NCBI GenBank assembly: GCA_030264375.1
Contig: JASCQW010000162.1
Location: forward strand, 106,226,979 to 106,290,978
Direction of reading: 5' to 3'
Length of the DNA: 64,000 nt
From: Carcharhinus longimanus
Lineage: Eukaryota
Shown: positions 10,764-51,791 of the stretch, piece by piece
How the letters are laid out: each line of letters opens with the position of its first letter
Numbering within the stretch: position 1 is the first letter of the stretch
Notes under the pieces: generated by a model
The model's input: only the letters and a program-made list of their open reading frames with translations
Databases searched by the model: none
What the model was told of the DNA's origin: nothing
Position numbers and translations under genes: made by a program

Positions 10764-10808
10764 CTGCAAATGAAAAAATTATAAATTCACTATGTATTAC
10801 ATCACATT

Positions 10809-11640: not shown

Positions 11641-14129
11641 TTTTTAAAATGTGGAAGCCAATAATCAACTTTGCACAAGTACCACTGTCACCAAATGTGA
11701 CACTCAAATGCAGTACAAGATAGTAAAGACGTCCAATCACGATCTTCTTACCACATTACAGCTGCATTTAGAAAACCCCTTGTGGGAAAAAAAATCCACT
11801 GGCATGAATCTTTTGCTCAGGATAATGTGTTACAGCTTCAAACCCTTGAGTCACCTTTAGCCCTTGTCAGCCTTAAAGTGCATACTGGCTTGACAATCTG
11901 TTCAAATTAATGACGTAGTAACAGGAGACACTGATTGCAACAGGAAAAAACAGCCATCTGGGGTTTTCCCAGAGGAGGAAAGTGAGCACAAACTTCCCAT
12001 CTGAAAACCTAAGCTAACCACTGAGCAATTTGAACCAGTCACCAGACAATTTGAACCAGTCACAATAGAAAAATCTTTATTCTGAAAGAAAGGCCACTCA
12101 AGTGTTCAATGAGTTATTTTGCCAAGAAAAGTTGGTCATAATCCTCAAAATCTTCCAACAATTTCAACTCACTTGCCCATTAAAATGATAAATTCACAAG
12201 CAGGTTAGTCCTTTTACAAACAACCAGTGTTGTTGGTTTTTCCATGCTGTTGTAGCCCTAGATTTATAATGAGTGATTCAACAATTAAGATCAGTTTTTA
12301 ATAAGAAGCCATTCAAAACTGATGGTTATAATGTCAGTGCTGTCAGAAATGTAGCCTTTAAAATTTACAAAGTGACATTGTGTTGCTGTGAAGCTCTATT
12401 GTTCACTGCCATATCCATACTGTAACTCTCGTAAACAACCCTACAATGCCTGCTGATTGAGCTAAACCACAAGTCATTAGATAGGAAGTTTAACTGTTAG
12501 TTTAGTCATAGGAGTTGCAGCCTGTTTAGAAGAGATAAGTCACAATGGACCAGGGGCAAAGAAAGATGTGTGCATGCAAGGTGAAAAATGCATTTGTTTT
12601 CATGGCAACCAAGGTTTTTGAACTTGATGTATTCTAAACACACGAACTAGCATTCAGATTTGCACAATCTCCAATTTACATGCACTTGGAGAAGTTAATA
12701 TTCTTAATCTTGAAATTAGGATTATAGTTTTTAAAATGTATTTTTGACAATGGTTTCATGGTCATCAGCAGGTTCTTAATTCCAGATTTAGGGATTTGGA
12801 ATTCCGTCTGCCAAGGCAGGATTCAAACCCAAATCCTCAGAATATTAACTAAACTTCTGGATTAATAGTCTAGTGATAATACCAATAGACCATAGCCTCC
12901 CTTTACTTAAAGCACAGGGAGAGAGACATGCAAGTAGAGTGGGTGGGATTTCCCCAGAATCTTAGACGATATTTAACTCACATATCAAATCATTACACCA
13001 CATGGCTTTCCATGAGTTCTTATGCAAAATTTGGCCACATTGTTTTGGAATCATGCAGGGAAACGGTGATGTCAAAGTTCTGCAAGTACACGTGTCAAAT
13101 AGAATTCAGGATAAAGAGCTGAGGTGGCTTAATTTGAATAAGGTACCCTTAAATCTTTGGAAGGCAAGGAATCAAAATGGGATAGAAGATCAATCGATCT
13201 GGGAATACAAAATGCCCAAATCAAAGTAGTACAGCCATGGTGCAAACCAACTATGGCTATTTAGAGAAATGGAACACTGACTGGATCAGATCACAGTTCT
13301 GGAATGCATACTCAATATAAAAAAGATGGAAGTACAGAAAGAGATTGACAATCACGTTGCATCAAGATGCAACCAGGAAAGGTTACACAAGTTGGGGCTC
13401 TGGCTTCAATAGAAGTCTTTAAAATTATGGAGGCTTGATAGTTTCCCTTGCCTTCGCTAGGTGAAAAAATCCAGAACAAAAAGTACACAAGTTTAAGACA
13501 GCCACCAACAGATCAAAGAAAGAATTCTGAAGTTTATTAATATGGAGAGCACAAGAACATAGAACACACTGCCCATGATTAAGCAGATAGCATTGATGTA
13601 CTTGAGGTTTGAGGCAGTTGTGAATGTAGGATAGTGAGATACAGGGTCAAGGCAGGAAGAGAATTTAGGATTGGGCAACAGACTTGAATGGAGTACAAAC
13701 ACTGGCATAGACCATTTGGACTTCCTTTGCAATGTATTTTCATAAAAATGTATATTTTATATCAAGGCTTCAGAAATAAAATGTAACCAAATGATACTTA
13801 ATAAAATAAAAGGAGTGCTTTTAATGTTTATGCATCTGTCATTCCATACACAAGGACCTTGAAAATTTGCAGGAAACAAAATAAACTTCATGTCTCATAA
13901 ACCAATGAAACCAAGAGATAGGTGGAAGGGTACATCTGGATGATGAACATTACAAAAGACTTTCACTCATACATACAGGGGAATTCTTTAGGGAGCTCAG
14001 AACCATGGTTTTGTGAATGGGCCAATCTGCAATTTACTGTCACCATAACAGGTTAGACTAGATTTACTTGGGAGTTAACAGTGATCTAGCTGAATTCCAA
14101 CTTGCTCAGGATCACTAGGAGCAGCAGAA

Positions 14130-14391
14130 CCATAGAACTCTACAATGAAGCGGCCATTTGGCCCATCAAATCCACACTAACTACAATCCTATCCCCATAA
14201 CCCTATGTATTTGACCCTTAGACTAGCTAGGGTAATTTAGCATGGCCAACCTTACACATCTTTGAAGTGTGGAAGAAAACCAGAAGAAACCCACACAGAC
14301 ATGAGGAGTACATGCAGAGTCTGCACAGAGTCACTAGAGGCAGGAATTGAATTTGGCTCCCTGGTGCTGAGGCAGCAGTGCTAACCACTGT
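14130..14391 (-). mobile_element. V-SINE/HE1-like SINE
   Basis: ggccatttggcccatc tail, aatttagcatggccaa, ctgaggcagcagtgctaaccactgt head. Confidence 0.7.
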
Positions 14392-15778
14392 CACTCAAAG
14401 AATTTTAGTAATAGATCCAGTAAAAAGATGTACTGTGAAAAGGAGAATGTAAATTTCAAACTCATTGGAGAGACTGATACGCAATACACAACCTGTTACT
14501 GCTCAGACCAGCACACAGCGTGGAAAATATTCTCTTCACTAGCTGAAGCAGTTAGCAATACTGCAAAGAAAATATACAGAATGCTACAGTACATGAAGAC
14601 TTTATACAAGCACCTTTTCTTTAAAGAAATGAGGGCACCCCCCTGACATGATCAATCAGGGAAAAACCAGTGTTCAGAACCTTTTCAGCTTTAGAAGAAT
14701 GAAGCTACTTCTGTGAGAACTGAGTGCATCATAAATATCAGAGGCAAGGATAATTAATGTTTACAATATTACTTGGTCAACATCTTGTAATTTTCCCCAG
14801 TGAGTTGCATCATTTTGTAGGAGAAATTCATACTGAAAACTCTCAATTTACAGGAACTGGGGTGACAGCAGGTTGGTTAAAGGATTCCCTCAAGGTTGGG
14901 ATACAGCCTGGTTAAAGGGAATTAACAAAAGGCCTGCACTTTTCAGGTTTAAAAGGAGTCCTAAATAAAATTAATAGGCCAGAGAAGATTAAAAAATGGC
15001 CATAAGCTAGAACTGAATTGACAGTGTCTGAACCAACATACATTGGGTGGCTGGTGTGGGAGAAGAGTCATTATGGTTTCAATTGGAATTCAAGTTGATA
15101 GATTTACATTTGCTTTAATTCAAGACATTGATCAATGTGAAGGGAATTTCACTGCTCAGTGTATTAATTAGCTTGTAAATTAACACGTAGACAAGACGAC
15201 TATTGGCAATACATCCTTAACACCCATTTTCTTTGCAACAAAATTTTAATCATGGAGCAATTGGCAAAATATTATGGAACTGTGAAGGACAGGGAACACT
15301 GGTGAGCTATCAGGTACAAATATTCACAATAGCACTGCAGATTAGCAGTTTAATTTTAGAACTGAAGGGTTTGAGGGATATATTGAGAAATTAAAATTAT
15401 GGTTTGGGTGGACATGTTCATTGCGCACAACATACTTCTCCCCCAAGAAACACCAAATATTTACTGAATTTTGAGGGAATTAATTATTTTCCAGTTCTGC
15501 TAAAAGCAACTTTTAGAGAAACAGCAAGTGTTCAATATTTGTTTGAAACATGTATTGGAGCATTACAGTTCTGATGCAAGAAATGTCAATTATCAGTCAA
15601 ACCTTAGGACTAGGGCTAATAAATTGTGCTGCCAGAACAGGTTTGGGCATTCTCCTGGCAGATGAGAATTGGAGACAAATGCTGGAACATCTTCTAATAC
15701 AAGAAATACATAAGAAAGAGACAATGTATAGGAAACCTGCATGGCATACAAGTAGAAAGAAATGTACCAGCAACTTAC

Positions 15779-15955
15779 CCGTAGTTCCTTTTTCAAGGCC
15801 TAATCCATAAGCAGAAACAAGACTCGTGTCGCCTGTCTGGCCAGGTTCCCCAACTCGAACCTTGAATGGACTACCAGTGATGTGACTGCCATTGAATTTG
15901 ACATCAATAAAATGGACACCATTCTCGTGAGGAATGAAGCGGATGGCATACTTGC
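15779..15955 (-). CDS. FLNB: FLNB exon 43-equivalent (177 nt)
   Basis: tacag|GC AAG TAT...ACG G|gtaagt; [39 protein letters not shown]. Confidence 0.92.
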
Positions 15956-16067
15956 CTGTAACAATGACCATAAAGGTTACACTTTTAGCAACGCACGAGC
16001 AACATTTCCACTCATTAGGTTATAAATATAAAAAGCATGCACACATACCAATGGAAAAAATCCTTAC

Positions 16068-16200
16068 CTGGCTCAATTTCAGATATATGGGTATCCTCCA
16101 CTGCCCCTGATGGACTGTGAACTTTAGCGTCAATTAAACCCTTAGCACCATTCAGTCTCACAGCAAAGGATACTGGCTGATTTACTTTTAATCCTGACTC
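16068..16200 (-). CDS. FLNB: FLNB exon 42-equivalent (133 nt)
   Basis: ttcag|GAG TCA...CCA G|gtaagg; [21 protein letters not shown]. Confidence 0.92.
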
Positions 16201-16349
16201 CTGAAGATTGAATAGTAAACACTTTATTGCACATTTAGATTCCACTGAAGCACAAGAAAAGGACTACACAAAGTTAGGCCAGAAGGTATAAAGCTTGCTT
16301 CACTTTGGCTATTGCTATACAGTGCAGTCAATGTTTACCACACTGATCC

Positions 16350-16770
16350 TGAGATGACAGGTTTGTCATAGGAGATTAAATTGGTTAGGACTATGTTTCA
16401 TTGGAGCTCAGAAGAGCGAGAGGGAATCTCAAACTTAAAATTCTAACAAGATTAGACAGCATAGATTTATTAAAAAATGTTCCTGATGGTGGGGCAGTCC
16501 AGAATAGGGGTCACTGTTTGAGGATAAGGGATGGAAGTGAGAAAATTCTTCAGAGGATGGTGAATCTGTGCAATTCACCATCACAGAAAAATAGTTGAGA
16601 CCAAAACAAATGTCTGATTTGAAGGTGGAATTAGATACATGTCTTGGGGATAAAGGGATCAAGGGAAACGGAGGGAAAGGCAAGATCAGAGTATTAATTA
16701 TCGTGGCTGATCATATTCAATTGTGGAGCAGGCTCAAAAAAAAAGGCAGAATGGCCTGCTCCTATTTTCT
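16350..16770 (+). mobile_element. Degenerate CR1 LINE 3' fragment
   Basis: agaagagcgagagggaatct...ggtgaatctgtgcaattc...gaatggcctgcctcctattttct. Confidence 0.7.
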
Positions 16771-17574
16771 ACATATTTCATTGATGGCTGACCTATATTG
16801 GAATAAGATCCTACGGCTGCAAGTTAAAGATCTAAAGCAGTTGCATTTCTTGTGTATTACTGCAGAAATAAGAGAACATAAGCATGTTAACGAGTGAAAA
16901 GAAAAGGTGACCAACTAAAATAACCTGAATCAAAACATGTAAAAACATCTCTAGTCGTGCTTTTTATAACCGAATAGAAAAAGCCCTTTGTCTGCCCTGA
17001 TAAAGGTCATTTCCTCTAGGATCAAAATTCAGCAGTTCAACTTGGCTGATAGAAATGAAGTCCAGACTTGAAATAAAAAAAAAAAATGGAGCTTCTGTTT
17101 CCAAGCTTGCTTAGACTGCGTTTAGTGAGGATGTCAATTTAGTTGACAAGCAAGCTGATTAAATCCCATTCAGCACAAGAGGTCTTGTGCATGGATCAGA
17201 GAATCAGCAGTGAGCCTATCAATTTTAAGCAGGTGAAGAAGATGGAAGCAGCCCAACTATACTGATGTACTTCAGGCATTCAAGTAGCCACCATTGGGCC
17301 TACCTCAGGTAAAAAAACCCAGGTGGGGCAGCAGCTCTCCACTGCATACAGCACCACCAAGAGCAGTGGCAGCTGCTGGTAATGCACCCAGAGGCCTAGG
17401 ATCACGACAGAACCCCAAGCCAAAAAGGTGTGTGAAGTAGAGNNNNNNNNNNNNNNNNNNNNNNNNNNNNNNNNNNNNNNNNNNNNNNNNNNNNNNNNNN
17501 NNNNNNNNNNNNNNNNNNNNNNNNNNNNNNNNNNNNNNNNNNAACCCCAAGCCTAAAAGGTGTGCGCAGTAGAG

Positions 17575-17652
17575 TTGTGGTGGCGGTGGCGGTGGCGGTG
17601 GGGGGGGGGGGGAAGGAGAAGAAGAAGAAGGAGGAAAGAGGGAGGTGGTGGA
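17575..17652. repeat. Low-complexity G-rich tract: (GGCGGT)n, poly-G, (GAA)n
   Basis: Directly visible. Confidence 0.85.
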
Positions 17653-19599
17653 AATGAAATGACCAAAGGACAGGGAGTGGCTCTGACCACAAACCACCCT
17701 CTCTTACACCCCTTCCCCCCCCCAACCCTTTCTAGTGCTAGGTTCCTTGAATAGGTTTGGAGTGCCAAACATCCAGGGAGGATGAGGACTGATCAGGGGA
17801 AGTTCCACCATCACTTGGAAACTAATTCAGGACCTTTCCAGTGATTAAATGGGCCTGGCCACCATGGTTCCTGCTGTGACAGCCCAGATTAAATTCTACC
17901 CACTGTGCCTGGTCTTAAAATGACAGATTCCCTGCAGGTAGTATTGTGCTGCACAGAATCCACCAGTAATAAACTGCCATTTGAAAGAGCTCATGCAATG
18001 TCTGGGCAGTTATAAGCTTAAAAGAACAGCTACTGATTACAAAAACTGAGGCCAATCTACTTGCAACAAAATCTCAATGCCAAAAGCATCAGAGTTCATA
18101 TCAAACCTAGTTTGAGATAAAACCATAATGAATACAAAATTAAAGATTTAATGAATTTCAACATTACCTGTTACCATTAATTTTTGCTAAAGACCTGAAG
18201 AGGGAGTTCCACCTTGTTTTCACCAAATACCAAACCATTACAAATACAACTTCAGGAACAAGCAGTCTGAGCCATTCACCAAGCACCACTGTAACAGCTG
18301 TTCACTTTTAACCAATATCAACTAAAGAACATCAGCATAAAAAAGGTTGGACTCTTAAACCTCTTCAACCTTTAACTTGTGGACAACATGCATCTTGCAG
18401 GTATGCTGTCACAAACCTTTAAATGAGACACAAGAAAAACATCCTAAATTTTTCAAGTGGCAGATGGTGAACTCCTTACACATGCAAAGGCCACACTGAT
18501 ATTTATCTCCATTTTAATGTAAATGTTGCAGAGCTTTGCAACCGGTGTTCTCAATAGGTTAGAACCAAAAAACCAGAGTTGGACCATGTAGCCCATGGAG
18601 AAAAAAGACTGCTACGGAGGAAGCATAAACTCAGACCATCTGTGTGACAAGTTGGAAACAGAGGTTCCACATGGTTTGCTGCCCCTCAGGCAAAGTTAAA
18701 TGGAAGCAGACTATATTCTACAATTGTGATTGCAAGTATAGCCAAGTTGCTGATCAAACAAATTAAGCTGATTAAATACAAAATTACAAAATTGTGGCAC
18801 AATCAAGTTTAATATTTTTTTTTAAAATGCGTGGTACTTTTCCTGGTTTAAAAATCCAATTCCTGTCATTAACCTCTTGGAATGATTTAGTTAGCGGTTT
18901 AATTCTTAAAGCATTACTTCCTTTAAATCTGCCCTCTTGGAACATATTACAAATTTTATCTATTTTATCTTACAAACTAATTCTCAACCTGTGGCATGTG
19001 AAATTTCAAGTGGTAAATTAAGATCAAATTGGATAATTTGATCAGAAAGGGCAAGAGTATCACATTAGCTTAAATTTATCTTTTTGAAAACTGGTTGTTT
19101 AAATGGTAAAACCATTTGAGTTTTTAAAAAGCTCTTATTTTCATCAATTTAAATTCTTTTTCTGCATGATCTAGGTAGCGGCAACTAACCACCATTAGTA
19201 CCATCTCTCAGAGTATTTTTTTTTAAAAAAGAGGAAGTGCACTTACTGTAGAAACCTCTGCAAACTTCACTTCATCCCAACACTGCAGCTAAAGTATAAC
19301 AACCCAGAACTGGGATGTGTATGTATTAGAGGAGAATAGTTTATTCTGCTATGGAATTAAGGGCCAAGATACATAGCACAACTGGATAAATGCAAGAAGC
19401 TGCTGAGAATGAGGGGGGGTAATTAATTCCTAACATTCACTTGCATCTGTATTCTTCTCCCTCTGACATTTCCACATTCAAGTATCACATCTTTCTAGGC
19501 AAGATATGGAACCATTTTAAATGGAGACACTTGCGAGTGTGGCCTTTGAGCGTGCAGCAGGAAACCCAGCCAGTAAGCCGATATTTTCTTATGTCTCAC

Positions 19600-19715
19600 C
19601 TGAAGACTAGCAACAGTAAGTCTGCTTGCATCCTCTGATGAAGCCAAGATGGGAACAACAAAGGGACTGCCAGGAATGTACTCGTCGTTGAACTTGATCG
19701 ACACCTCATAATCAC
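19600..19715 (-). CDS. FLNB: FLNB exon 41-equivalent (116 nt; ends in the Q/R editing codon)
   Basis: tgcag|GT GAT TAT...CTT CAG|gtgaga; [22 protein letters not shown]...LTVASLQ. Confidence 0.92.
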
Positions 19716-20214
19716 CTGCAACAAAAACACATTTAGATCAATGCTAAGTTACAAACATACTGAATCTACTAAACCAAATTTCAGATTTATTGTTCAACAC
19801 CATTAAAATTGTTGCTGCCTTCTAGGCCACAGATGCATTGCCGATACATCAGTTTGAATAAACAAAAAAGATTTTCATATTAAATTACAGGGGGTTACTA
19901 TATATTTTAGATTCAAATCTTGGATGGACTTTAGCTTTCAAGGGTTAATGGAGAACGGATTTGTAGAGAGAATGAAATCTGGCTTTCTGAAAACTATTTT
20001 TAGCAATTCAAGGTCTAGTGCTGGTAGATTATCAGAAATTCTCCTGGAAAACTTTGGCCTGAATTTCGTACTCCTTGCTTGGTGATGGAGGAAGATTTAT
20101 CCAAAATGGGGAAAGCCAGGAAAAGAACAGACTTAGATCCCAGATGGAAGACAGTAACTCCATCAGAAACCCCCTTTGTTCACAGGTGTCCCCGTACAAT
20201 GGGGTTCAGTGGCT

Positions 20215-20598
20215 GCTGGACCTCCAGAGAAGAATGAGGGGAGATCTCATTGAGACATATAAAATGATGAATGGGATGGATAAGATAGAGGTAGAGAGGC
20301 TCTTCCCACTCAGAAAGGACAGTAGGACTAGAGGGCACAGCCTCAAGATAAAGGGGGGCGGTTTAGAACAGAGTTGAGGAGGAACTTCTTCACTCAAAGG
20401 GTGGTGAATCTCTGGAATTCTCTGCCNNNNNNNNNNNNNNNNNNNNNNNNNNNNNNNNNNNNNNNNNNNNNNNNNNNNNNNNNNNNNNNNNNNNNNNNNN
20501 NNNNNNNNNNNNNNNNNNNNNNNNNNTTATTGAATGGCGGGGCAGGCTCGAGGGGCTAGATGGCCTACTCCTGCTCCTATTTCTTATGTTCTTATGTT
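20215..20598 (+). mobile_element. CR1-clade LINE 3' fragment
   Basis: ORF2 C-terminus RRMRGDLIETYKMMNG...TRGHSLK..FFTQRVVNLWNSL; tail atggcctactcctgctcctatttcttatgttcttatgttct. Confidence 0.85.
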
Positions 20599-20848
20599 CT
20601 TCCTCTCCCACCCAGCTCTCCAGTGACATCCCAATTGCCCCCTTAGGCCTTCACTATCCTCCCCACCCTGGGGGCTCTTAAAATTTGCCTCGGCCTCAGG
20701 ACTTATGCTCAGACATCTCAGTTGCTATCAAGGTGGTGGTGAGCTGTCACCTTGAGCCACTGTAATGCTGTTCTCACCAAGACCATCAAATTGAGGGGAA
20801 TTGTCCTTTGTATTATCAGCAACACTGTCAGGATTTCTACACACTCAC

Positions 20849-20986
20849 CAGGCTCTTGTGCCACGTATGACACACCACAGGATCCATCCTTCCGGTCTTC
20901 AAATGAAATCTCTGCCCTGCTGGGTCCTTCCACAGCAATGGAAAGGCCACCTGCACCTGCTTCCCGTGTCCAGATACTGAATTCAG
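20849..20986 (-). CDS. FLNB: FLNB exon 40-equivalent (138 nt; Ig21)
   Basis: tctag|CT GAA TTC...CCT G|gtgagt; [46 protein letters not shown]. Confidence 0.93.
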
Positions 20987-21947
20987 CTAGAAGGGCGAAC
21001 ATTAATTATAACCAATACTTAAATCCTCAGACAGTTGCCAACATAACTAACCTCTGCTTTTGAAAAGCTTAATATTGCAACGTGTGAAAAGATTGAAGTC
21101 ATAACTTGAGGTCTTCATTTAACTTGTGACTAGTTTGCATCAAGTTTAGACAATTCCATTTCCCAATGCATCCTGAAGATTTAGTTCAAAGCCAGTGATT
21201 CACTTATACATAACACCAGGAGACCCTTGTACTTGGATGTTTTAAAATGTACAAATAGATGAATCTTAATTATAAAGGCCCAATTTTAACTCCAGGTGAC
21301 TGGCAAATTATAAAAAAACTATTGATTTTCTCCAGAAGTCGGATTGTTTCATCTCAGTCATGAATGTCATCCAAATCTTAGTCACCAACTTTTCAGAGGG
21401 AAGGTCTACACTTATGGGGATTGGAGCACAAGTCCTGTCTCTGGCTTCACAGGTTGACCCCCACCCCCAAATTACTTCACTGGGATATGCCACTAGGATA
21501 GTCACTGTGCCTTTCCTACTCAGGCCACCAGTTAAAAGGTGTTGTCAAACAGCAATAAAGATTTGATGTGCATTTGGGAAAAAAGGACTCCACAGCACCT
21601 TTGGACAGTGCACTCAGGTTACAAAGTTGGAAACATGTGTACAGAGCAGCTGCCTACCTTGGTTTCTGGCAAGGGGCGAGTTGGTTAAAAAGCACCCTCC
21701 CTAGATGAGCTAGTAAACCAAATTTAATGTAATAACTAGAACTATTAGTCAAGCATCAAAAAAGCCTTACAGGAAAAGCAAATTGCTAAGATTACAAATT
21801 TACTGTTCCCCATATTCAAAAGTATTCCACATTAGGTATCTGTAGCGTTGACATAATCCACACACATTGCAAAGCTAACTCGACCATAATCCTTCCCACA
21901 GAAATCAGGGAAACCCACCGGTGAAAAATACATTTTCACTAACTTAC

Positions 21948-22214
21948 CTGGGACTCCCACTTCGCCTCGCTCAAGGCCAGGGCCACCAGCGCGCACTTTG
22001 AGAGCTCCTCCTTCGCCAAGGGGCCCCACAGTAAATTGGAAAGGACTGCCTGGTACATGCCGGTTCCGATACATGACACTAACTGTATGCACACCCATCT
22101 CATCCGGCACAAATCTGACACAGTACGTGTGATTGTCACTTTCAGTGATCTCAGCATCAGCCAGTTTTCCAGAGGGACTGGTCACTTGAGCAGACATGTC
22201 ACGGACATCAATTT
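21948..22214 (-). CDS. FLNB: FLNB exon 39-equivalent (267 nt)
   Basis: tatag|AA ATT GAT...CCA G|gtaagt; [15 protein letters not shown]...[26 protein letters not shown]. Confidence 0.93.
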
Positions 22215-23371
22215 CTATAGGGGGACAGTCAGTGTCAAGTTACATTCTAGACTGGAGGCACCAAAATAACTGAAAACCAATAAAATCAAGTTTAACCAAG
22301 TAGCCATATTTGCCTTGCACTGGAAAAGACTGGTTGTGTAGGATTTCATGTTTTACTAGTATTTAACTGTACATTATACGGCTTAGTGTTTTTGATACCA
22401 GGACAGACCCATCAGTTACAAGGTTGGAAAGCTTTTTTTTGCTATTCCTTCTGACAGGTCAGAAGGCAGAGCTCGAGCTTCCAACTGCTAGTGCTTAACC
22501 AGGGTTTCAGATAACAACTAAAAAAACAGCGATGTTTACAACTAAACCATGAGATATCAATGAAAGTAAAACAAACTTTGATCAAAGCATTGTGGTTGCT
22601 TGCTTACCACAATGATTTTATACAGACCACATCATAGAATGTTTAATTAAAACAACTTCATCTTCAAATTAAAATTAGTTAAACAGCAAATAGATGCTAA
22701 TTAGGTAAACAATAAGAGGAAGTCAAATTAGTAGACAGGAATTCTACATTTTGACCATGCTGAAATATGTTGGTTTCAGGACTTTTGACTCATTCTCTTT
22801 TCAATTTTACACCCCCACCCTACACCCATACATGATCCCACCCATACTTGGTTAGCAGGAAAAGGGTCATCGAGACCCAGCGCCACCTCATTATCCTGAC
22901 TGGCACTTTTCCTTGAAGTTAAAATGCATTATCTGCAGTATTTACTTCAAAATTACTTTGCAAATTATTTGTCATCAAAAGGGCTTTATTTTTCTTCAGG
23001 TCTAACATTTAAAGTTTCTCTTGGGTACTCAACTCCTACCCCAGATACTGTAATATCATATGGTATAATGCAAAGCCAGAAGGTGGCAGATTATTTTAGT
23101 ACAGTACAATGTAGACACCCATTCCATTTCCAGTCTGTACTTTCATGCTTAAGCTAGTGAGCAAATCTGCAACATAATACATTTGACTACTTTGGTTGTC
23201 TGTAGGACAGTAAGTAATTTGCAAGTAGGACAGTCCTAAGCAAATTTAAAAACTCTGCAAGGGAAGGAAATTCTTACTCATGCAACTACCATCGACAAAA
23301 GCATGCTGGCTAATTTAAAATAAGCACATTCTGCCGACCTCAGAGTCCACATGCCCAGTGCTGAAACGCAC

Positions 23372-23599
23372 CATCCGGCCTTAATGGCCATGCACTGAAC
23401 AATTTGTATTCCTCCTGGCCCAAGAGGCCAAACAGGGACGGGATAGGTCGACTTTGAACACTAGCAGGGTCCTTGGATTTTTCAAACCGATTCTGGCGGA
23501 TCTCCATTTGTTCTGCACGCAAGAAAGTGCAACTTGTCTGAAAATCTGAATGTGTGCAACAGAGGCGTTCCCGAGCCACCGTTAGTTGGAACCAAGTCA
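23372..23599 (-). CDS. FLNB: Putative cassette exon (228 nt, 76 aa) homologous to the filamin-C Ig20 insertion
   Basis: Long pyrimidine tract cctgtctctctttccttttctttcctattccactcag|TG ACT TGG; donor GAT G|gtgcgt; phase 1-1, no stops; VTWFQLTVARERL...TFLRAEQMEI...PIPSLFGLLGQE aligns by eye with recalled FLNC NWFQMVSAQERL...TYTRTERTEI...PFPAVFGDFLGRE. Confidence 0.78.
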
Positions 23600-24819
23600 C
23601 TGAGTGGAATAGGAAAGAAAAGGAAAGAGAGACAGGAAACAGTTGTATTCTAGAAGAAAAATTGAGATAGACATCTGCACTTCAGTTTTCTACATCTTCA
23701 TGCACTTCAACAAATTAACTGGTCTACACCTTATTACACATTTAAAAAAAATTAAACTAACACCCCCCTTATCCCACCCAAGACTTCACATGATTGGAAT
23801 TTAGATTTGATTTAGCCCAGAATAGTCCATGATGCTGTGGGAACTGAATTTACACAGNNNNNNNNNNNNNNNNNNNNNNNNNNNNNNNNNNNNNNNNACT
23901 TTGCACGCAAATCTCACACAAAGGAAATGCCACATGAATGCAATAAAGATCAACAATCACATTGTTCATTGTGAATAAATTGCCAAAATAGCTGACAAAA
24001 CTAGTGGGGTCAGCAGCAACTTGACGTTTTCATGATGGGCATTTGCTCTCACCACCCTTCTGCCATTTGCTCAAATTTGGCAGTGTTTTAGTGACTGGAA
24101 AGATCCCAAATTTTTAAAAATCAAAATAGTCTAACATTACAAATCACTAAATGCGATTTATGGTATCACAGCCCACAAGCTATAAACAGCTTTCAAATTT
24201 GACTATTTTTAGTGATAGGTGACAACTAACCTCCCCATCTATTTTTAATTGAATGGCTGAAACCATTATGTAAACATCTGTAAATCGTGTCAAGTTTAAA
24301 AACTGAAATGACAAATTGTTTTCCCAAGATTAGTGGAAAGGAAAAAAATAGCCTGGACAGTATTCAGAATCGCAGAAAAAGAATGCTACAACAGCACATT
24401 CCTCAAAACTGTAAACATGAACTAATTCCTCACATCATTTGTGCTCTTTAGAGATTTCAATGAGATGTATTCAGAAATAAATACAACTTCTGTTTTATTT
24501 CATTTAATCTATTAGCCATACGCTGGATTGAGTTATTAGAACTAGCGTTGGAGGATTAAAATACCATTGCACTGCACTTTTTAAAGTTTCTCTTTGTGAA
24601 AAGATTCAATTGCACAAACTGGGCGAGATGATTTGCCATCAGCCATCACTGTATTTATAATTCAGCCAACATTTAAAGTGAAGTAATGACTAACAGCCAA
24701 CTCTGTTAAACATTCTTTACTTCTGACATTTTTCAAATGCCGAGCTGACTCAATTACACAATCCAAATACTTTGAGGACAGATTCCAGCAAATGTTTGGA
24801 ATTCCTTTTTCAATCTTAC

Positions 24820-24942
24820 CGGGAATCTTTAGGTTCAGATCACAGATACTTCCGACAGTGGCTTCAGATGCAGCCTGTCTTCTGCGAGTGATGCTCTCTC
24901 TCATTCGTCCTTCACCTGTTACTTTGACAGTGAATGGGCTCC
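24820..24942 (-). CDS. FLNB: FLNB exon 38-equivalent (123 nt; the 41-aa 'var-1' exon spanning Ig19/20)
   Basis: ttcag|GG AGC CCA...CCC G|gtaaga; [41 protein letters not shown]. Confidence 0.92.
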
Positions 24943-25106
24943 CTGAAAACGTTCACACAGTTAAAGGATAAGACCCTGCTATACAATAGATTCCAATTGC
25001 TCATACACAGAACTTCTGTTTGCTAAACTCTGGTAAATTAGCAGCAATTTTTTAAAAGAACATTTTGCACAACGTTCATTTGGACCAAACGACAGAATCT
25101 TTGACT

Positions 25107-25402
25107 AGAATACCTAGAGTAAAAGGCAGCCATTCAGCTCATTGAATCTGCACCAATTCTGCAAAAGAGCATCTCAGCTAGCTACCCGCCACCATTCCTG
25201 CAACCCAAAACATTTACCGTGGTTAATCTCCTAATCTATGCATCTTGTGACAGTGGGCAGCAGTTTAACACAGCCAATCCACCTAACCTATCATCTTGGG
25301 ACTGTGGGAGGAAACCCACACAGACATGGGGAGAATGACTGTCTGTGGAGTTTGCACAAAAGACTGCGACTGAACCCGAGTTCCTGGTGCTGTGAGGCCA
25401 CC
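25107..25402 (-). mobile_element. V-SINE/HE1-like SINE
   Basis: ccaatccacctaacc...tgggaggaaacccaca...ctggtgctgtgaggc. Confidence 0.65.
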
Positions 25403-26445
25403 CATAAATAATGCATTAAATAATCTCAGTAATCTACCAAAGGACAAATTGGCTTAATCAAACAGGTACCAAAATTGGTTTCAAATACAAGTGCTTTTAG
25501 TGTTGTGATTCACGTATACTTTGGTTCAATTTCTGAAAATAAGGAATATTTCAACCCTAGTTATATAAATAGGATTCCTCAAGTATTTGATCAAATAACT
25601 AAATTCAGATCATAGCCACATGGGATCCTTGCCCAATATGCTACATTCAAAAGGCACCAGAACGACAAACCAGGCCAATTTCTGCACGAATTCAGAGCAT
25701 GAGAATGTAGGTGCTACAGCAAATGAGTGCCAGAGATAACATTTGCAAGTAGAATATTTTACAAAAGATTCTAATAAAAATTGGTGGCTTTTCCTCTAAT
25801 AACATTTTAAATGAGGTAATAATGCGAAAGCAATTAGCTACATATGATCTCGAAAGTTCAACAAGCTGCATACCATTATAACAGTTTTACCTGACATTAA
25901 ACCAAGCTCAGATGTTAACTAGCAATAAATGACTGTAGAGCCAGCAGAATATGCCACAAATTTTATCATCTAGTCATGTACTGCATCAATTCTGAACAAA
26001 AAGCATTGATATTGGAACACCGTGCTGGATCAAAATTAGAGGAAATATATGCTTGGTGGTTAAAAAAGCGTGAATAAGAATTCAAATAGAAAATCTGACA
26101 GGACTCATCATTGACTATATAGACTATTTAATGCAGCCAAAGTCTATCATTACTGCAAACTAAACAGTTGAGTCTGGTTCATCAAGAGACCAAATTCAAT
26201 TATTTCACTAGATACCTAGGAACCCAATTTGAACACAGAAGAACTGACTTTACTAGGGATTTTCAGCCCAGTTTATTAGCATGGATCCCTTCCTGCTGCA
26301 AAAGATGTAGCACTGTCAAATTATTGCATTACATTTTTTTTTTTTGCAATAAAGAACTTTTCAGGAGCAAGGCCATACATCCATTAATGTCTGGAAGTGA
26401 TGGCAGAAGATAAAAATGAAAACAATTTTATGTCACTTTTCATAC

Positions 26446-26598
26446 CTGGTACATGTTCATCAGCAAATTTGATGTAAATAATGTAAGTGCCTGGCTCAGT
26501 TGGACAGTAGAAAACCTTGCAGGCACCATCCACAGTCTCTTCTGTATTAATATCCACCTTACTTGGGCCTTCAATAGATAGTGCAAGACCACCATAAC
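26446..26598 (-). CDS. FLNB: FLNB exon 37-equivalent (153 nt)
   Basis: ttcag|GT TAT GGT...CCA G|gtatga; [17 protein letters not shown]...FADEHVP. Confidence 0.92.
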
Positions 26599-26760
26599 CT
26601 GAAACATTTAAGGGCAATTATAATTCATACTATTTTGTTTAAAAAATTTTCAAGATGTGCATTTTACTAACATGTTGCAGCCAATGGAATAATGAAACAT
26701 AGGACTGTTCTCAGAGAGGACAGACATTCCATTAAGTCTACAAGTTTCTGGGTAAAATCA

Positions 26761-26973
26761 GAATCTCTTACAGGGTGAGGAAGAGGCCGGTTAGCCTATT
26801 GAATCTGCACCGACGTTCCGACACAGCATCTGACTCCTCCTGTAACTCCATGTATTTACCCTGCGAATCCTCCCAACCTACACATTGTGTCACTAAGGGG
26901 CAATTTTAACATGGCCAATCTCGCTAACCTACAAATCTTTGGACTGGGAACACTGAAGGAAACTCATGCAGAC
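26761..26973 (-). mobile_element. V-SINE/HE1-like SINE, 3' part
   Basis: cactaaggggcaattttaacatggccaatc...ctttggactggg. Confidence 0.6.
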
Positions 26974-27491
26974 AAGTTTTTCCCCCCTATCTATCCATCT
27001 CTGCTCAGTAGAGAAGGATTAAATGTTGTTCTTGTGGAAACAATTAGCTACATGTTTAAGGCTACATTTATTGTACCATCACTATTAGGTGTATAAACAG
27101 CACTTGCCACTCTAGACAGTTAGTTCACTCCATGGAACGGAAATTATGACTTGCCTGCTCCACATCACAATTGAGACTGGCCACTTTAAGGCAATGGGAG
27201 CACAAAGAGCAAGAGTTATATTTTCCAGCCAATTGCACCCTGCTGTCAGCAAGGACAGAATCTGGCAGTCAGCCAAATCTCTTGACTGCAGTGGATGAGA
27301 GAATCCTGCTGGTGTGAACAGCGCGAGTCTGTTTTCCCAACTTGAGTCAGTTGGGCAAGATTTCAGTGGCCTGTTTCATTACTGCAAGGTTATATGATGT
27401 TTTAAAATATGATACAGGTATATATTATATATTAGAGAGAACTGCATATCCAGTGTCCTCAGAACCATTGGTTTGCACAGGCTCATCTTAC

Positions 27492-27695
27492 CTGCATCCC
27501 TCGTGTCCACAATGAAGTCAGACATTTCAAATGTACGTCCTGCTGTCAAACCTTCGCCAGAGACCTTAACTCTGTTAGCATCTCCAATTTCAGACTGGCC
27601 AACCATAATGGCAATCGGGCTATTTGCCACATGTCTTCCATTTTTCTTTATGCTGACAAGATGTTCACCCACTTCCCGTGGGATAAAGGAGATAC
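27492..27695 (-). CDS. FLNB: FLNB exon 36-equivalent (204 nt)
   Basis: aatag|GT ATC TCC...GCA G|gtaaga; [20 protein letters not shown]...VDTRDA. Confidence 0.92.
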
Positions 27696-28181
27696 CTATT
27701 GATCAGAAAGGTATCACACCTTTCAGCATTTCATAATTCAGAAAAATCCCTCTCCATCGCTCCAATCTTAAATGGTTTTGTGCATACATCTCACTCCCGT
27801 TAGATATACCTATGCAGCCAACAGTCTCTACAATCTGCAACTTCCTTCTTAAAATGCCTCCCTTATTAGTTCCTTCTTTGGCTCAAAGCCTATTTTGTCC
27901 CTCTTACAGTTGGAGAAAATGTCCTTACAATACTGAAATAAAAGTATTCCACACATTGTAAATACACAGGTCAAGTTCAAATTCCACATAAGAATTGAGA
28001 TATTAGATTCAACATTCTTTTGCTAAAAACAAAAGATTTGGCACAGAAATCAAAGGTTTTATTTCTTCAGTCATGGCATATTTCAATTTACAAATCAATT
28101 AAAAACAAAAAATTAACCAAGTTGCACAAGTATTCTTAAAATGTTACCTTGGAGGCACAGAATATAACTTCAGGCACTTAC

Positions 28182-28344
28182 CAATGTGATTGTTTGGCAG
28201 TCTCTTCAGCAGGCATGGCTCATCTTGGCCAGATGGAGATTTAATGCTGGCAGATAGCAAACTAAGGTCACTTTCATTGATGTCCAAAGAGATGTCAGCA
28301 GATGNNNNNNNNNNNNNNNNNNNNNNNNNNNNNNNNNNNNTCAT
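28182..28344 (-). CDS. FLNB: FLNB exon 35-equivalent, interrupted by an assembly gap (28305-28340)
   Basis: ttcag|AT GA[N]..[41 protein letters not shown]|gtaagt. Confidence 0.88.
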
Positions 28345-29115
28345 CTGAAAACAGCCAAATGAATTTAGTCCAGAAATTTATGATACAGAACAGATCTTTA
28401 TGTTAAAATTCTTTAGCTGAAGAGTTTTTAGAACAAAAGTGCATCACAATGAAGCAGATATCCTGTAAATAAAATTCATTAGGTCCAGTGTTTATCAACA
28501 GATGAATTTACCATGTTGCCAAAAACCCAGTTGTGTCTCAATTTTAAGAGTTTTTAAAAGAGAGACCAGCAGTATAACATCAATTCAAAGGTTATGCACT
28601 GATTTGTAGTTCTGCCTCAACAGCACACCTTTTGAAGAACAGAATCAAGCAAAAACAACTTGGATTTCACGTTACTGAAGTCCTGTTGCAGTGGATTGAA
28701 TGCTGACAGCCTCACCATTATTACTACTACAAAATCCAGACTATCACATAAATGTGACTAAATTAAAATGTTACCACTTCCTTAGCGATATACCTCACAT
28801 GCACTTCAAACTAAAATGTACTTGGGTTGTTCGACAATCACTTCCCAATACAAACTAGTTTATAGCAAGACTAAAACTTGTTCCACTTTGAGCTTTCATT
28901 TAGAAAATAGATATTACACCAAGAAAGTAACAAACCAAAAAATCAGTACAATTATGAACTTCAGCCTTAAAAACTTCCAAACCTAGTACAATTGTGCCAG
29001 GACAAAATGGAACAGAAACCGGACAAGCCATTTTTGAGGAGCTGTAGATAACATGGCGCAAGATAGCACATCTGACGTGGAGACAAATTAGACAAGTGTC
29101 TAAAAAGGTGGATAG

Positions 29116-29266
29116 GCATGGTGGTTAACACTGCTGCTTCAGCACCAGTGACCTGGGTTCAATTCCCAGCTTGGGTGTCTGTGGAGTTGCACATTGTGTT
29201 TGCATGGGTTTCACCCACAGTCCAAAGATGTGCAGATTAGGTGGATTGACCATGCTAAATTGCCCC
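29116..29266 (+). mobile_element. V-SINE/HE1-like SINE running into N gap
   Basis: gtggttaacactgctgc...gggttcaattccc...cacagtccaaagatgtgcag...catgctaaattgcccc. Confidence 0.72.
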
Positions 29267-30355
29267 NNNNNNNNNNNNNNNNNNNNNNNNNNNNNNNNNN
29301 NNNNNNNNNNNNNNNNNNNNNNNNNNNNNNNNNNNNNNNNNNNNNNNNNNNNNNNNNNNNNNNNNNNNNNNNNNNNNNNNNNNNNNNNNNNNNNNNNNNN
29401 NNNNNNNNNNNNNNNNNNNNNNNNNNNNNNNNNNNNNNNNNNNNNNNNNNNNNNNNNNNNNNNNNNNNNNNNNNNNNNNNNNNNNNNNNNNNNNNNNNNN
29501 NNNNNNNNNNNNNNNNNNNNNNNNNNNNNNNNNNNNNNNNNNNNNNNNNNNNNNNNNNNNNNNNNNNNNNNNNNNNNNNNNNNNNNNNNNNNNNNNNNNN
29601 NNNNNNNNNNNNNNNNNNNNNNNNNNNNNNNNNNNNNNNNNNNNNNNNNNNNNNNNNNNNNNNNNNNNNNNNNNNNNNNNNNNNNNNNNNNNNNNNNNNN
29701 NNNNNNNNNNNNNNNNNNNNNNNNNNNNNNNNNNNNNNNNNNNGTACATAAACAAGGCTGGGGGAAACTTGGAACTCAGTGTCTGAGAAAAAGGTGGTAG
29801 AGACACCACACAAAAATTGGATGTCTACTTGGGGAGCTATGGCCTGCATGAGTGTCAGAAGGTGGGATTAGAATGGAGTGTTTTTGGTCAACTGGCACAG
29901 ACACAATGAGCCAAATGGCCTCATTAAATGAGGTCAGTTGACCTCATACTATAATTCCTGCTCGTTTAAGTGACAAACAAGGTGAACAAACAAGATAGCT
30001 ACTTTGCAGTAGTCATTAAGTTAGGAATCGTCCAATTGTAATTGAGTTTCATAAGTTCTAACATTTGAATGTGAATAGAGTCCAAACAAAATTAGTCAAC
30101 TAGAACCAAAATTTGTTATCCCAATTAAGTCATGACTGCAATTTTACCAGTTCAGAATTCCCAGCTACACTAATCTTCCCAGTTTCAGCTCTCTTGTATA
30201 ACTAAAGTTTCAAAGCATTTTTGTTATGCTACACAATTAGCATTAGTACTAGACTAGGTTCATGTCATAGATCAAGTCCATTTCACAATTAGAAATGGTA
30301 TTTAGGTTTAACCTACTGAAATTTATTTGCAATTTCATCGTAGATAATTTATTAC

Positions 30356-30529
30356 CTGTAATTTTGGCAGTGAAAGGGCTTCCAGGAATATGTTTTTCAT
30401 TGTATTTGACAACGATACTGTAATCACCTGGCAGGGTTGGCAGGTAAGAGACTGTACAAGTGCCATTCTTGTTATCTGTGCAATTGATTTCTGCCTTAGA
30501 AGGTCCCTCAATGGCCAAGTCCAGACCTC
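30356..30529 (-). CDS. FLNB: FLNB exon 34-equivalent (174 nt)
   Basis: catag|GA GGT CTG...ACA G|gtaata; [23 protein letters not shown]...FTAKIT. Confidence 0.92.
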
Positions 30530-30899
30530 CTATGCAGTGGGGGAGGAGACAAGACAAAAACTCCACTTTAGAACACTTGGACTGACCTTATATAGTCACC
30601 GTGAAGGAAGAAAATCTTCCTGCATGTTAGAGAAAACATTACCAACTAATATGGATTATACTAGATAGACCTTGAAAAATCAGGTGGTAGCTCATGTTAC
30701 TTCCAAATTGCTGTTAGAACACAATTATTGGAGCAAAATTGTTAACTGACAACTGTTAAGGTTGTGTTACAAGCAGTTGAGCACCAATTGGTAAACAGTT
30801 CTTAGATCAAAGACCCATTAGTGGTTTCATAGCTGACTTGAATCAGCATGCACATGTATTCTATAATGTTCTGCAGAGTATTAATAGTTTGATGCTTAC

Positions 30900-31028
30900 C
30901 TTCTCCAGCATCTTCAGTTACAATTGTAAAAGTAGCTAGTTTGTTGACAACGCCATAGACAAGGCCTGGACCATATGCTGACACATGTCCACTACTTCCA
31001 TAATTCACAAAGAACTGTAGTGGACTCT
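30900..31028 (-). CDS. FLNB: FLNB exon 33-equivalent (129 nt)
   Basis: ttcag|AG AGT CCA...GAA G|gtaagc; [29 protein letters not shown]. Confidence 0.92.
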
Positions 31029-31551
31029 CTGAAAGTAATCAAATACATGGCCAAAATTGAGTCAATTAGATAATTAGCAGTTTAGCTCTACTAAAAGATA
31101 ATGCCAAAAGATGTTGAAGAATGACATCTGTAGGCAAGATATAGTATGGTTGAATGCAGTAAACTAAATCAGCATTACTTAGATTCTCCTACCCCAGTCT
31201 GAATTCAAATGTACTCAGCTTGGTAGTTATTGGTTCATCTTAAATGCAGTATTTTTANNNNNNNNNNGTTTATGACATGGTATAAAAGGAAGTTAATTTA
31301 TCAACTACATTGCCAAGTCCTCAATCTCCACTTTTATTTCAGGATGGATTAGGTAAAACATCAGAACTCAAAACACCCAAAGTCATAATGGAGACAACTT
31401 CTGCCTCATCTGATCTTAAATTTGGAACTTTTATTCTTGGGCATGTGCTTAAATATTACATGAGCTCAAGATTTCTTTTATGTACTGAGATTTGTATTAC
31501 ATGCAGGAAAGAAAAATGTATGCCAGACAGGCCTAAAAAGAAAGTGAATAC

Positions 31552-31692
31552 CTGGAATATGTCTGCCATTGTACTTGATGTGCATCTCATGTAGCCCAAC
31601 CTCAGTTGGTGCATATTTGACAGTCACGGTACCATCCTTATTATCAATAATTTCTGGCTTAGCAGTTTTTTTTGAAGGCATGTGAACTTCAC
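31552..31692 (-). CDS. FLNB: FLNB exon 32-equivalent (141 nt)
   Basis: catag|GT GAA GTT...CCA G|gtattc; [37 protein letters not shown]. Confidence 0.92.
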
Positions 31693-32444
31693 CTATGTAA
31701 TAATTATATACAAGTCAAATACAAGATAGCTGCAAAAGGCAGGTTAAATAATTCCAAATATTAAACTATAAAACTTTTCAAAAATCCAACATAGAAAAAT
31801 CATTCAACTTCCAAAATGCATCATTTGTGAAAAACAGGTAACAACAAAGGCAGGCAGTAAGTGTATAACCACCAGTTGTACGCAAAAATTCAGAAGCTAG
31901 TGAGCTTTACCCCACCCCATAACCATGTTATAAATACTGCAATCCTAGCTCCTCTTAATTATTACCAAGGTACTGTGTACAGTGGTTATTGCACCCGCTA
32001 CAATCTTAACATTTGATCCTGCATCATGGCCAACTATTGGGTCATAGGGATCAAGCTGCCAAAATATTATTTCACATCAAGCTATTTCAAAAAGTTCTCA
32101 ACTTGAACAATTAGGTGTCAGGTTTGCCTTTTCACATTACAGGAATAAAGCTGGCAGTAGGCAGATGGGCTTTCATCCTAGCTACTTTGGGTAGGTTTCA
32201 AAGAAAGTAATTGAAAACATATTATAGTTAGGGCATCTGCAAAGTTCTCAATTGGAAAACTGTCATTGCTCTACTTAAGGGGAAGGATTCATCCGACACC
32301 TGTCACTGACAGACCGGAGTCTGTAATGAAGGATATAGAGATGACCGAACATCTTAATTCCAACCATGAGCGCTAGAATAGATTCTTAAAGCTTTGGTGG
32401 CACCAAACAAATGGGATTGAATTTTTGAAGTGGCTACTAATTAG

Positions 32445-32646
32445 TGACTTGGAGATGCTGGCGTTGGACTGGAATAAGTACCGTAAGTCTCAACGCCAGG
32501 TTGAAATCCAAATGGACTATCTTCGTTTCCAGGTTGCGGCGTTTGCAGCAGAGCTGGTTGAGATGCTTGAGTGTGAGGGGGTGTGATGGCAAAGTCTCAG
32601 CATAGTCTGCGCTGCAGGTTTGACCTGGTGTTGAGACTTCTTACTA
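32445..32646 (+). mobile_element. Short Penelope-type inverted-repeat element, copy 2
   Basis: ggagatgctggcgttggactgg...ccaggttgaaatcca ... tttgacctggtgttgagacttcttact; TSD tactaattag at 32435-32444 and 32647-32656. Confidence 0.7.
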
Positions 32647-33432
32647 TACTAATTAGCAATCAGGGGAATGTTGATGGATGCCACAGAATGCATATGACAG
32701 AAGTTCTCCATAAGAGGCTGTTGGCCGAAGATTGAGTTTGGAATTAGAGGCAAATCACTGACCCATTTAGGAAACTGGGCCTAGTGGAAGGGGACAAGGG
32801 TAGGGAAAATGGGAAGAAAGCAAAATGGTGTCTCAGAAGTATTGGTGTTAATTAGTCACTGATTAATAACTTGGCTAAGGTGATGACAGATTGCTTAGGT
32901 TTTCTATTACTGCTTCATAATGTTACATTTAACAACTGGACAAAACTTTGGATTTCAATATTGGTGAAAAAAGACATGGTTGCACTTATCAGGACAAATT
33001 GTAAGGATACCAATGTCAGGGGAAACAACTTTACACTGTATGGGAAGGGTGCAGATGGGTAGATGTGTCATCATGGGAGAATGCACCAGTTGATGGTAAC
33101 TGAGCTAGCCTACAAGGCTTGGTTTGAAATTTGAACCAGGCAGCTAGACTCTGGTCAAGGCATTGCTGAGGAATGAACCAGTGAATGACTGACTATCAGC
33201 TGAAACAGGTAGTGTGGATATATATTCTGTCAAAGACCAAAGTTCTGCATATTAATACATGTCGCATCCAGCACATGCAAATCAGAGTCCATCTGACTAT
33301 CCTAAATTTTTAAGCACACTTTGGTATTATCTTGCAAATGTCATCTATTGCAGATTCATATCTAATGTTGGACACAGTTTTGCATTTTGTTTGCATATGG
33401 TCTACACTTGGCCAGTTGTGAACAGAAGGGAC

Positions 33433-34087
33433 ATGGGGCCCTATTTTACCATTTTGATTCAAAGTGCTGGGCAGACTTGAAACTGAGTGTTTCAGATCCA
33501 ACTTTGTATGGGGGTTCTCAGGCACCCCTATACACACTGCCTGAAAAAGCATCAGAAATTCTGAATCATGCTGCACAAGCCTGTGGGTGGGGCTTAACAC
33601 ACAAAATCCTGCAGCTCAGATCAGCACCTGCACATATGCAGGGAAAAAATGCTAATGCAGTATCCTTGCCACATTGCTCCCAGGCTGGATATGCCTTCCT
33701 CTGGCTCCCCCAGAACACTGACCCCCTTATCTCCCTACTCCATTCCACCACCCAGATTGACCGCGGGCCCCTTTGATATCTCGTCCCCTGCTCGGCACTC
33801 ACTAACAAATGCCCAAATTGGACTTGTGAAACAAACAGCTCCACATCAATTCTGGATGGGTGAGCACAGTGGTAAAGGGGGAAGTGTTGGTAAAGTCAGG
33901 CGTGCAGCCTATTAAGCCAATTTAAATGCATTCAAATGGCTGTCGTGCCCGATCATGGCCATTTTCAGGCCTTGATAAGAGGAGGAACTGGCGTGGAGGC
34001 AGGCATGGATCACACTACTCGCCTCACGTTTAACTACCACTCTTTCATGCCCAAAAACAGACAACTTAATGGCAAAATCAGGCCCAT
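33433..34087. mobile_element. Possible non-autonomous DNA element (MITE-like)
   Basis: Imperfect terminal inverted repeats atggggccctattttaccatt / aatggcaaaatcaggcccat enclosing a GC-richer segment. Confidence 0.4.
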
Positions 34088-34771
34088 GGTGTTTGATTAG
34101 ATCTATCAATCCTATCAATGTGAAGCCAACATACCTAGCATTACACTAACACTGATTCATATACCACATTACTTGTGTGATGGATAGAATTGCTGAAATC
34201 TTGCTGGAGTTACAATGGCAGGATCTTACATCCTGCCAACAGTACACCCCTGCCACAGGTTTCCCAACAGGAAACCTCATTGACAATAGCAGGACCATAA
34301 GAACACTGCCAGTGAGCAGTGCACTGTCTTCACCACAGTGAAACATACCAGAGAGAGGGGGGAGGAAAATCCATCTCATTGCTGAAGCTAAATTACAGGA
34401 CTTACACAACCAAATTGGATTTCTGAATTACTTACAAACTTGGCAAGCATAAAAAGCTATAACCAGCAGATGGAAGGAAAGAATGGTAAACAGTGCCTGA
34501 AGGATCAATGACAGGCACAAAAGCAAGGGTCAGATAGCACTCAAGTCAGTCTTTAAGCAAAACCTACCCCTGCTCAAAATTTGTTAAAATATTACTCCAA
34601 TCTCAAGAGGCAAAAATGGTGCCCAAGTAGTAAATACATTTAAGAAACTTGTAAAGGAGGGGACAATTTGGGTGGTTGCAACAGTCCAAAAAACAAACTT
34701 TTTGAACACAGAATTTTGCACTACAGAGACCCCCAGCAACCTTATTTTCCATTAATAATGGCAGATTTTAC

Positions 34772-34874
34772 CTGTGATTTCCCCTGTCCTGAGAGCAAAA
34801 GGAATGACGATATCAAAAGGTTTCAAGCCCAAGCCATCTATACCATCAACTGGTGTGTAGGCACTATCAAGAAC
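34772..34874 (-). CDS. FLNB: FLNB exon 31-equivalent (103 nt)
   Basis: ccaag|GTT CTT...ACA G|gtaaaa; VLDSAYTPVDGIDGLGLKPFDIVIPFALRTGEIT. Confidence 0.9.
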
Positions 34875-51719: not shown

Positions 51720-51791
51720 ATGTGGGTATGCCGGCATTGGACTGGCGTAAACACAGTAAAAAGTCTGACAACACCAGGTTTTAGTCCAACC
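51720..51791 (+). mobile_element. Penelope-type element, copy 3, truncated by N gap
   Basis: atgtgggtatgccggcattggactgg...acaacaccaggttttagtccaac; same terminus as the other copies. Confidence 0.65.

Follow-up and report, generated by a model that had tools for sequence, protein, structure and literature searches.

The FLNB gene of Carcharhinus longimanus probably carries an alternatively spliced exon that is homologous to the Ig20 insert of FLNC, is likely to descend from a single vertebrate filamin gene that preceded the split of the family, and is likely to be used mainly in striated muscle. In the window, which is the whole 64,000-nucleotide stretch of DNA analysed here, the FLNB gene body occupies positions 5229..62729 of the minus strand, where 35 exons match residues 495-2608 of coelacanth FLNB in colinear order. 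The insert exon (23372..23599, minus strand) is 228 nt long and encodes 76 codons in frame (peptide P0001). It is a separate, symmetric phase 1-1 exon between the two halves of Ig20. The upstream exon (24820..24942, minus strand, 123 nt) encodes the end of Ig19 and the start of Ig20 and ends in LNLKIP-G with a phase-1 donor. The downstream exon (21948..22214, minus strand), the counterpart of human exon 41, encodes the remainder of Ig20 and the start of Ig21. The polypyrimidine tract and CAG acceptor of the insert exon lie at 23600..23640 (minus strand, CAG at 23602-23600), with 23/25 pyrimidines compared with 16/25 at both neighbouring acceptors. The donor, GTGCGT after a final exonic G, lies with the read-through tail at 23340..23371 (minus strand), and 24 of the 34 other donors of the gene score higher in a rough matrix. 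When the exons were joined by script, the three-exon form and the skipped form each gave one stop-free frame. Re-reading the sequence and joining the exons confirmed the coordinates, phase, peptide, flanking exons, acceptor and donor of the original prediction, and the stop-free segment it described is an in-frame FLNB exon. The open frame by itself is weak evidence, since 168 of 7806 stretches of equal length across the gene body (2.2%) are also open; homology is the strong part of the case.

Three filamin loci were identified in this genome, namely the window gene and one locus each on contigs C130 and C105. For phylogenetic analysis, each position was mapped onto one scaffold protein, and 9 of 40 rows with <450 filled columns were excluded from the first tree. 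Trees built on 1039 and later on 1957 aligned columns place the window gene as the sister of all bony-vertebrate FLNB (SH-aLRT 100), a position that suggests a cartilaginous fish. Placements in or beside FLNC or FLNA were rejected by the AU test (p 3e-5, 1e-40 and ~1e-4, all at most 1.3e-4). PDHB lies ~282 kb from the window, and ATP6V1F lies a few kb downstream of the C130 filamin, with human gene order taken as the yardstick for both neighbourhoods. A search for the RPP14 family gave a match on another contig only. The C130 filamin is FLNC, in which a separate 240-nt phase-1 exon encodes the classic insert, and the C105 filamin groups with FLNA. The FLNA equivalent of exon 40 and the next intron (L057:2141-3680) are lost in an assembly gap of 1540 bases, so FLNA may have its own insert copy in this genome; the insert was found in 0 of 21 stored FLNA-type proteins under a crude paralogue assignment. 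N makes up 33% of the 100 kb around the FLNA locus. Transketolase-family genes occur on both the FLNB contig (C162:110.45 Mb) and the FLNA contig (C105:80.04 Mb), which fits paired duplicated regions. The FLNB identity originally proposed for the window gene is borne out by the tree, the AU test and the PDHB neighbour, with FLNC and FLNA at other loci.

The insert peptide matches the FLNC insert of the same genome with a BLASTP E of 4e-10 (25/77 identical), and none of 2000 shuffled sequences reached this score (z 13). Profile searches were run on 13,818 six-frame pieces, taken from the three filamin loci and from 200 kb of their neighbourhood. With an HMM of 15 FLNC inserts, the FLNB segment was the sole other match above threshold (E 1.3e-4). 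An HMM of bony-vertebrate FLNB inserts, with the shark left out, gave the window segment the best rank (E 1.8e-8) and the FLNC exon the next best (E 1.7e-4). Comparison of the FLNB-insert profile with the FLNC-insert profile gave 94.9% (E 4.6e-8). Across the genome (2.68 Gb), the single-sequence match of the insert reached an E of just 6.4, level with a chance match, so it is the pairwise and profile tests, together with the position in the same intron, that make the homology significant. These tests uphold the proposed homology of the FLNB and FLNC inserts. Against proteins of 133-2000 residues, a range that full-length filamins exceed, 0 of 23 candidates scored with the insert peptide, a result that therefore carries no weight. 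The AlphaFold model of the insert peptide alone was uninformative (mean pLDDT 55, pTM 0.21), a PDB sequence search with the FLNC insert gave 0 matches, and a search of the ESM Atlas gave no match >=0.9.

The FLNB insert peptide evolves fast and does not match the strong cross-species conservation of the FLNC insert: FLNC inserts share 82-94% identity between species, whereas the shark FLNB insert shares 20-47% with 11 bony-vertebrate copies, the coelacanth copy reaching 47% over the whole exon. The W and F at the start of the insert are unchanged in all 13 FLNB species, and the tryptophan that is invariant in 13/13 FLNB copies corresponds to FLNC W2164. The positions I2160, W2164, S2233 and S2236, cited for FLNC in the available text of two papers (PMC7216277; PMC11550807), fit the mammalian FLNC insert when counted by hand. 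The AKT site RxRxxS has been described at human FLNC S2233 (PMC11550807). As originally noted, RERLGS is absent from the FLNB insert, and with it this site. The FLNC insert of the same genome reads RDSLGS and likewise has no -3 arginine; counted by eye, RxRxxS occurs in 1 of 15 aligned FLNC inserts, that of the mammal. As 14/15 FLNC inserts, including the one from the same genome, are without the site, its absence says little about FLNB regulation, which leaves the suggestion of different regulation weak, and RxRxxS is not a defining trait outside mammals.

Database models place the same exon in a range of bony vertebrates. A search with frog FLNB was extended by 20 FLNB clusters with at most 15 members listed each. 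Of the 290 stored FLNB-type proteins compared in all, 14 have the insert and represent 12 species, 269 have none and 7 are odd, with paralogues assigned crudely. Models with the exon come from coelacanth, lungfish, gar, bowfin, four teleosts and four lizards. The coelacanth, Prochilodus, two catfish and Anolis models contain it as an in-frame cassette, full-length in Anolis XP_062825912 and coelacanth H3B014. In the gar, piranha, lungfish, Podarcis and Lacerta models it is a last exon that reads through the donor: gar XP_069045499, piranha XP_037388079 and lungfish XP_043934725 (all RefSeq) end in G-A-F-stop directly after the donor, and the Podarcis and Lacerta models end in a similar way. 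The Varanus model has a stop inside the insert exon, the bowfin model (MBN3302122) diverges after the insert start, and a second piranha model has the exon followed by intron-like sequence. Altogether, six of the 14 database proteins stop in or shortly after the exon. The other accessions of FLNB models with the exon are KAI4879622, TSM44169, KAK3536563, XP_053233897, XP_032996890 and XP_044307318. Counting the shark, 11 of 13 species keep the reading frame open as far as the presumed donor, at lengths of 61, 64, 76, 77, 79 and ~80 codons; the in-frame models are in frame by construction, and phase is thus independently tested by the read-through models alone.

A search with frog FLNB recovered the Prochilodus insert with the same start, and no shark FLNB, among the 120 of 2217 matches listed; the searches contained no chondrichthyan FLNB protein. 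The start motif is absent among the listed amphibian, bird, turtle, crocodilian, snake and mammal FLNB proteins, where absence from annotation does not equal absence from the genome. A search of 1.84 billion representatives with the FLNC-insert profile gave 32 matches, comprising 30 FLNC-type sequences, one divergent sequence and one unrelated repeat, and no further FLNB-type insert copy. The divergent sequence (P0152), from an ENA contig, is an FLNC-type insert exon, with z 25 to the FLNC insert of the shark genome and no significant match to the shark FLNB copy; it could be a teleost duplicate, FLNA or from a jawless fish. Inserts at the same junction in Anabas and Sinocyclocheilus are unrelated to the FLNB insert (z under 0), as are, judged by eye, inserts in one piranha, one Xenopus and one catfish model. 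The bowfin FLNB with the insert (MBN3302122) was deposited as 'FLNC protein', and in several bird models labelled FLNA the junctions are of FLNC type but the insert is missing. Away from Ig20, isoforms of frog and lizard FLNB show further differences in blocks of ~24-31 residues. On the evidence of the FLNB models from coelacanth to lizards together with the shark gene, the insert exon is pan-gnathostome and already present in public automatic annotation. The ancient origin that had been proposed is supported to at least jawed-vertebrate age by the shark-to-lizard copies and the profiles.

The splicing of the exon was examined in 4 of 24 sequence runs (X1, X2, X3 and X8), all as contigs and presumed to be RNA; X3 and X8 are taken as RNA because spliced joints are present in both. 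In an X3 contig from another, related species (depth 3.5), the insert continues into a 24-base stretch identical to the end of exon 40 at 21/24 positions, and the three mismatches are all silent. There is no gap across 132 bases in X3, and 167/167 bases match in X2. The skip joint 22215-24822 occurs in X8 at a depth of 90.7. The exon is therefore used alternatively, as had been predicted, being joined upstream in X3 and skipped in X8, and most observed FLNB transcript forms skip it. X8 is without insert coverage and X1 and X2 are without coverage of the flanking exons; the records were filtered, so these gaps carry no meaning. Of the two inclusion junctions proposed, 24820>23599 is supported by the one X3 contig, and 23372>22214 was not seen directly in the four runs. 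Its use is suggested by the X1 and X2 contigs, from two studies, which end exactly at 23372, as would be expected of a fork at which the donor is sometimes spliced and sometimes read through. In X1, 100 nt of upstream intron sequence are retained and there is one gap of unspecified place, which is probably intronic as all 22 sampled exon words are present. Two changes in the insert exon are listed in the runs, one silent and one not. A 595-base X8 contig covers intron 24208-24618 with 37 differences and many small gaps, and is probably non-coding pre-mRNA of a related species.

Binding of RBFOX downstream of an exon favours its inclusion in muscle. Five GCATG words of RBFOX type, two of them full TGCATG, are clustered at 23141..23400 (minus strand), and four lie downstream of the donor. 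This cluster is the densest of 2822 windows of 260 nt in the gene body, the window having been picked post hoc. We propose that the exon was inherited from one filamin gene before this gene split into A, B and C. When the insert is spliced at both ends, 76 residues would be added in frame after the LNLKIP strand of Ig20, at the site of the FLNC insert. The RBFOX-type sites below a donor of middling strength may raise inclusion in muscle, and a muscle bias is also suggested by analogy with the FLNB exon used in human heart. Inclusion would give FLNB a flexible loop, and about the first twelve residues of this loop (W-F...E.L, with the equivalent of FLNC W2164) could bind Z-disc partners as FLNC does. 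After duplication, the FLNC insert presumably came under strong constraint and the FLNB copy drifted. If splicing bypassed the donor, the protein would terminate with this exon, giving a filamin without repeats 21-24. In the shark, the frame past an unused donor continues G-A-F and meets a stop at 23342-23340. This truncating last-exon form, modelled in gar, piranha, lungfish and three lizards, was missed by the original prediction.

In the main rival account, which is less probable, the exon is likewise real and ancient but serves in FLNB chiefly to truncate the protein or lower its level in muscle: the acceptor would be used and the donor often read through, the transcript would finish inside the intron or be broken down, and the in-frame cassette would be a minor leftover. 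The G-A-F-stop ends in gar, piranha and lungfish, the similar ends in Podarcis and Lacerta, the stop inside the Varanus exon, the matching start of the shark read-through before 23342 and the low rank of the donor among those of the gene (rough matrix) all fit such a role. The X1 and X2 contigs ending at the donor would fit a spliced/read-through fork, and truncated FLNB var-2 and var-3 in human heart arise from an exon in the same intron (PMC2199218). However, the frame is open and in phase at differing lengths in 11/13 species, the starting W and F are invariant in all 13, and the Anolis and coelacanth models are full-length cassettes. The terminal models may also be artefacts of retained-intron reads, and the lone AATAAA in the downstream intron, at 22990, is no excess over what AT-rich DNA would yield. 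That the exon is a decaying pseudo-exon, spliced only as noise, is very improbable: the inclusion contigs have low depth, the protein changes fast, the Varanus copy has a stop and 269/290 FLNB-type proteins are without the insert, but the open frame and the common start motif extend from shark to lizard, the acceptor is strong, X2 matches at 167/167 bases and X3 is gap-free over 132 bases.

The same pattern might have arisen if the exon originated in FLNC after the duplications and a gene conversion event in the jawed-vertebrate stem lineage then transferred a copy to FLNB. Among stored proteins, the insert was not seen in FLNA or invertebrate filamins, and 30 of the 32 matches among 1.84 billion representatives are FLNC-type. 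Conversion would need exchange between paralogues on different chromosomes, however, and the flanking exons group cleanly as FLNB. A single loss from FLNA explains the pattern equally simply, and the human FLNC insert is a separate, differentially spliced exon (PMC2192634), easily lost. We regard conversion as very unlikely. A rooted tree with Ciona and protostomes, containing no lamprey or hagfish filamin, favours the order (C,(A,B)), in which FLNC diverges first and FLNA pairs with FLNB; the AU test (5000 replicates) gives both alternative orders p 0.002, and the SH test gives no rejection (p 0.32-0.33). With this order favoured, an insert common to B and C points to their common ancestor. 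A second FLNC at the window locus, in which the insert would be expected, has a negligible probability. The insert alone, together with a bowfin FLNB deposited under an FLNC name, speaks for it, and it is ruled out by the tree, the AU test, which refutes it, and the synteny. Inheritance of the FLNB exon from the ancestral filamin is the reading we favour.

The original prediction that the exon was lost from mammalian FLNB is probably wrong. Human FLNB exon 40 is 123 bp, equal in size to the shark upstream exon, and the intron after it contains the heart-specific exon 40B/C, which gives the truncated var-2 and var-3 (PMC2199218). The role of this exon was called elusive, and the available text draws no link to FLNC (van der Flier 2002, PMC2199218). 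In the dolphin FLNB model XP_033721079, 15 extra residues at the exon 40 junction end in PVGLE, and fish FLNB inserts end in PSGLE, PCGLE and PLGPE. The dolphin insert was scored against 11 FLNB exon ends, with bowfin and Varanus excluded and coelacanth trimmed by two, the dolphin case having been picked after inspection. Over the last 8 residues, 0 of 15,146 null peptides reached its score, and at other lengths 1/16,824 (6 residues), 1/13,645 (10 residues) and 16/11,242 (14 residues) did so. The dolphin insert, which matches the 3' end of the exon, may correspond to exon 40B/C, and the homology of human 40B/C with the shark exon is drawn through this dolphin model, not from human sequence. 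Human 40B/C and the shark exon are both alternative and both lie in the intron after the 123-bp exon 40, and human 40B/C proteins are without the last four repeats, as the shark read-through product would be. They differ in size and effect: 40B/C measures 147 or 70 bp and truncates the protein if included, but the shark exon has 228 nt and stays in frame. The exon probably persists in mammals in a much reduced form that is used in heart. A broader account is about evenly balanced between true and false: the 'FLNC-unique' Z-disc insert would be an ancestral vertebrate filamin exon, kept in FLNB as a muscle switch for >400 million years, of which mammals would retain just the 3' end, converted into the truncating exon 40B/C of heart. 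If true, an exon that once made FLNB resemble FLNC would now serve to switch FLNB off in heart.

The insert has been called unique to FLNC, or missing in FLNA and FLNB (PMC2192634; PMC7216277; PMC11550807), and is held to explain the Z-disc role of FLNC, with cardiomyopathy variants clustering in the region (PMC7216277; PMC11550807). In human FLNC it is a separate, differentially spliced exon of 243 bp (van der Ven 2000, PMC2192634). The FLNB exon resembles it in lying in the same intron as a separate phase 1-1 exon, with sizes of 243 bp in human FLNC, 240 nt in FLNC of the shark genome and 228 nt in FLNB, and the two peptides are homologous (35% identity) with the equivalent of W2164 kept. 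Unlike the FLNC insert, the FLNB exon is in FLNB, mostly skipped, fast-evolving and without RxRxxS. Striated-muscle expression, Z-disc targeting and myotilin binding are further traits of the FLNC-type insert and may extend to the FLNB exon. Automatic FLNB models such as H3B014 and XP_062825912 contain the orthologous exon, with the same start motif at the same junction, and these fish and lizard models are unlabelled predictions. The available text of PMC7714767 and PMC6613909 has nothing on the Ig20 insert exon, and the FLNB exon in PMC6613909 is hinge 1. No paper reporting the insert in FLNB was found in a search that covered neither subscription journals nor supplements. The exon is thus in public automatic annotation yet unremarked in the literature as far as searched; the prior annotation that would have removed its novelty exists as unlabelled bony-fish and lizard models, and no paper noting the exon was found.

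The finding is an evolutionary correction and not a new mechanism. It offers a possible origin for the human cardiac FLNB var-2 and var-3 transcripts. Muscle of fishes and lizards might produce an FLNB that resembles FLNC, with consequences for compensation between paralogues in these models. The diverged FLNB copy provides natural variants for asking which residues of the insert matter: its start, including the W2164 position, is invariant, and the AKT site is not conserved.
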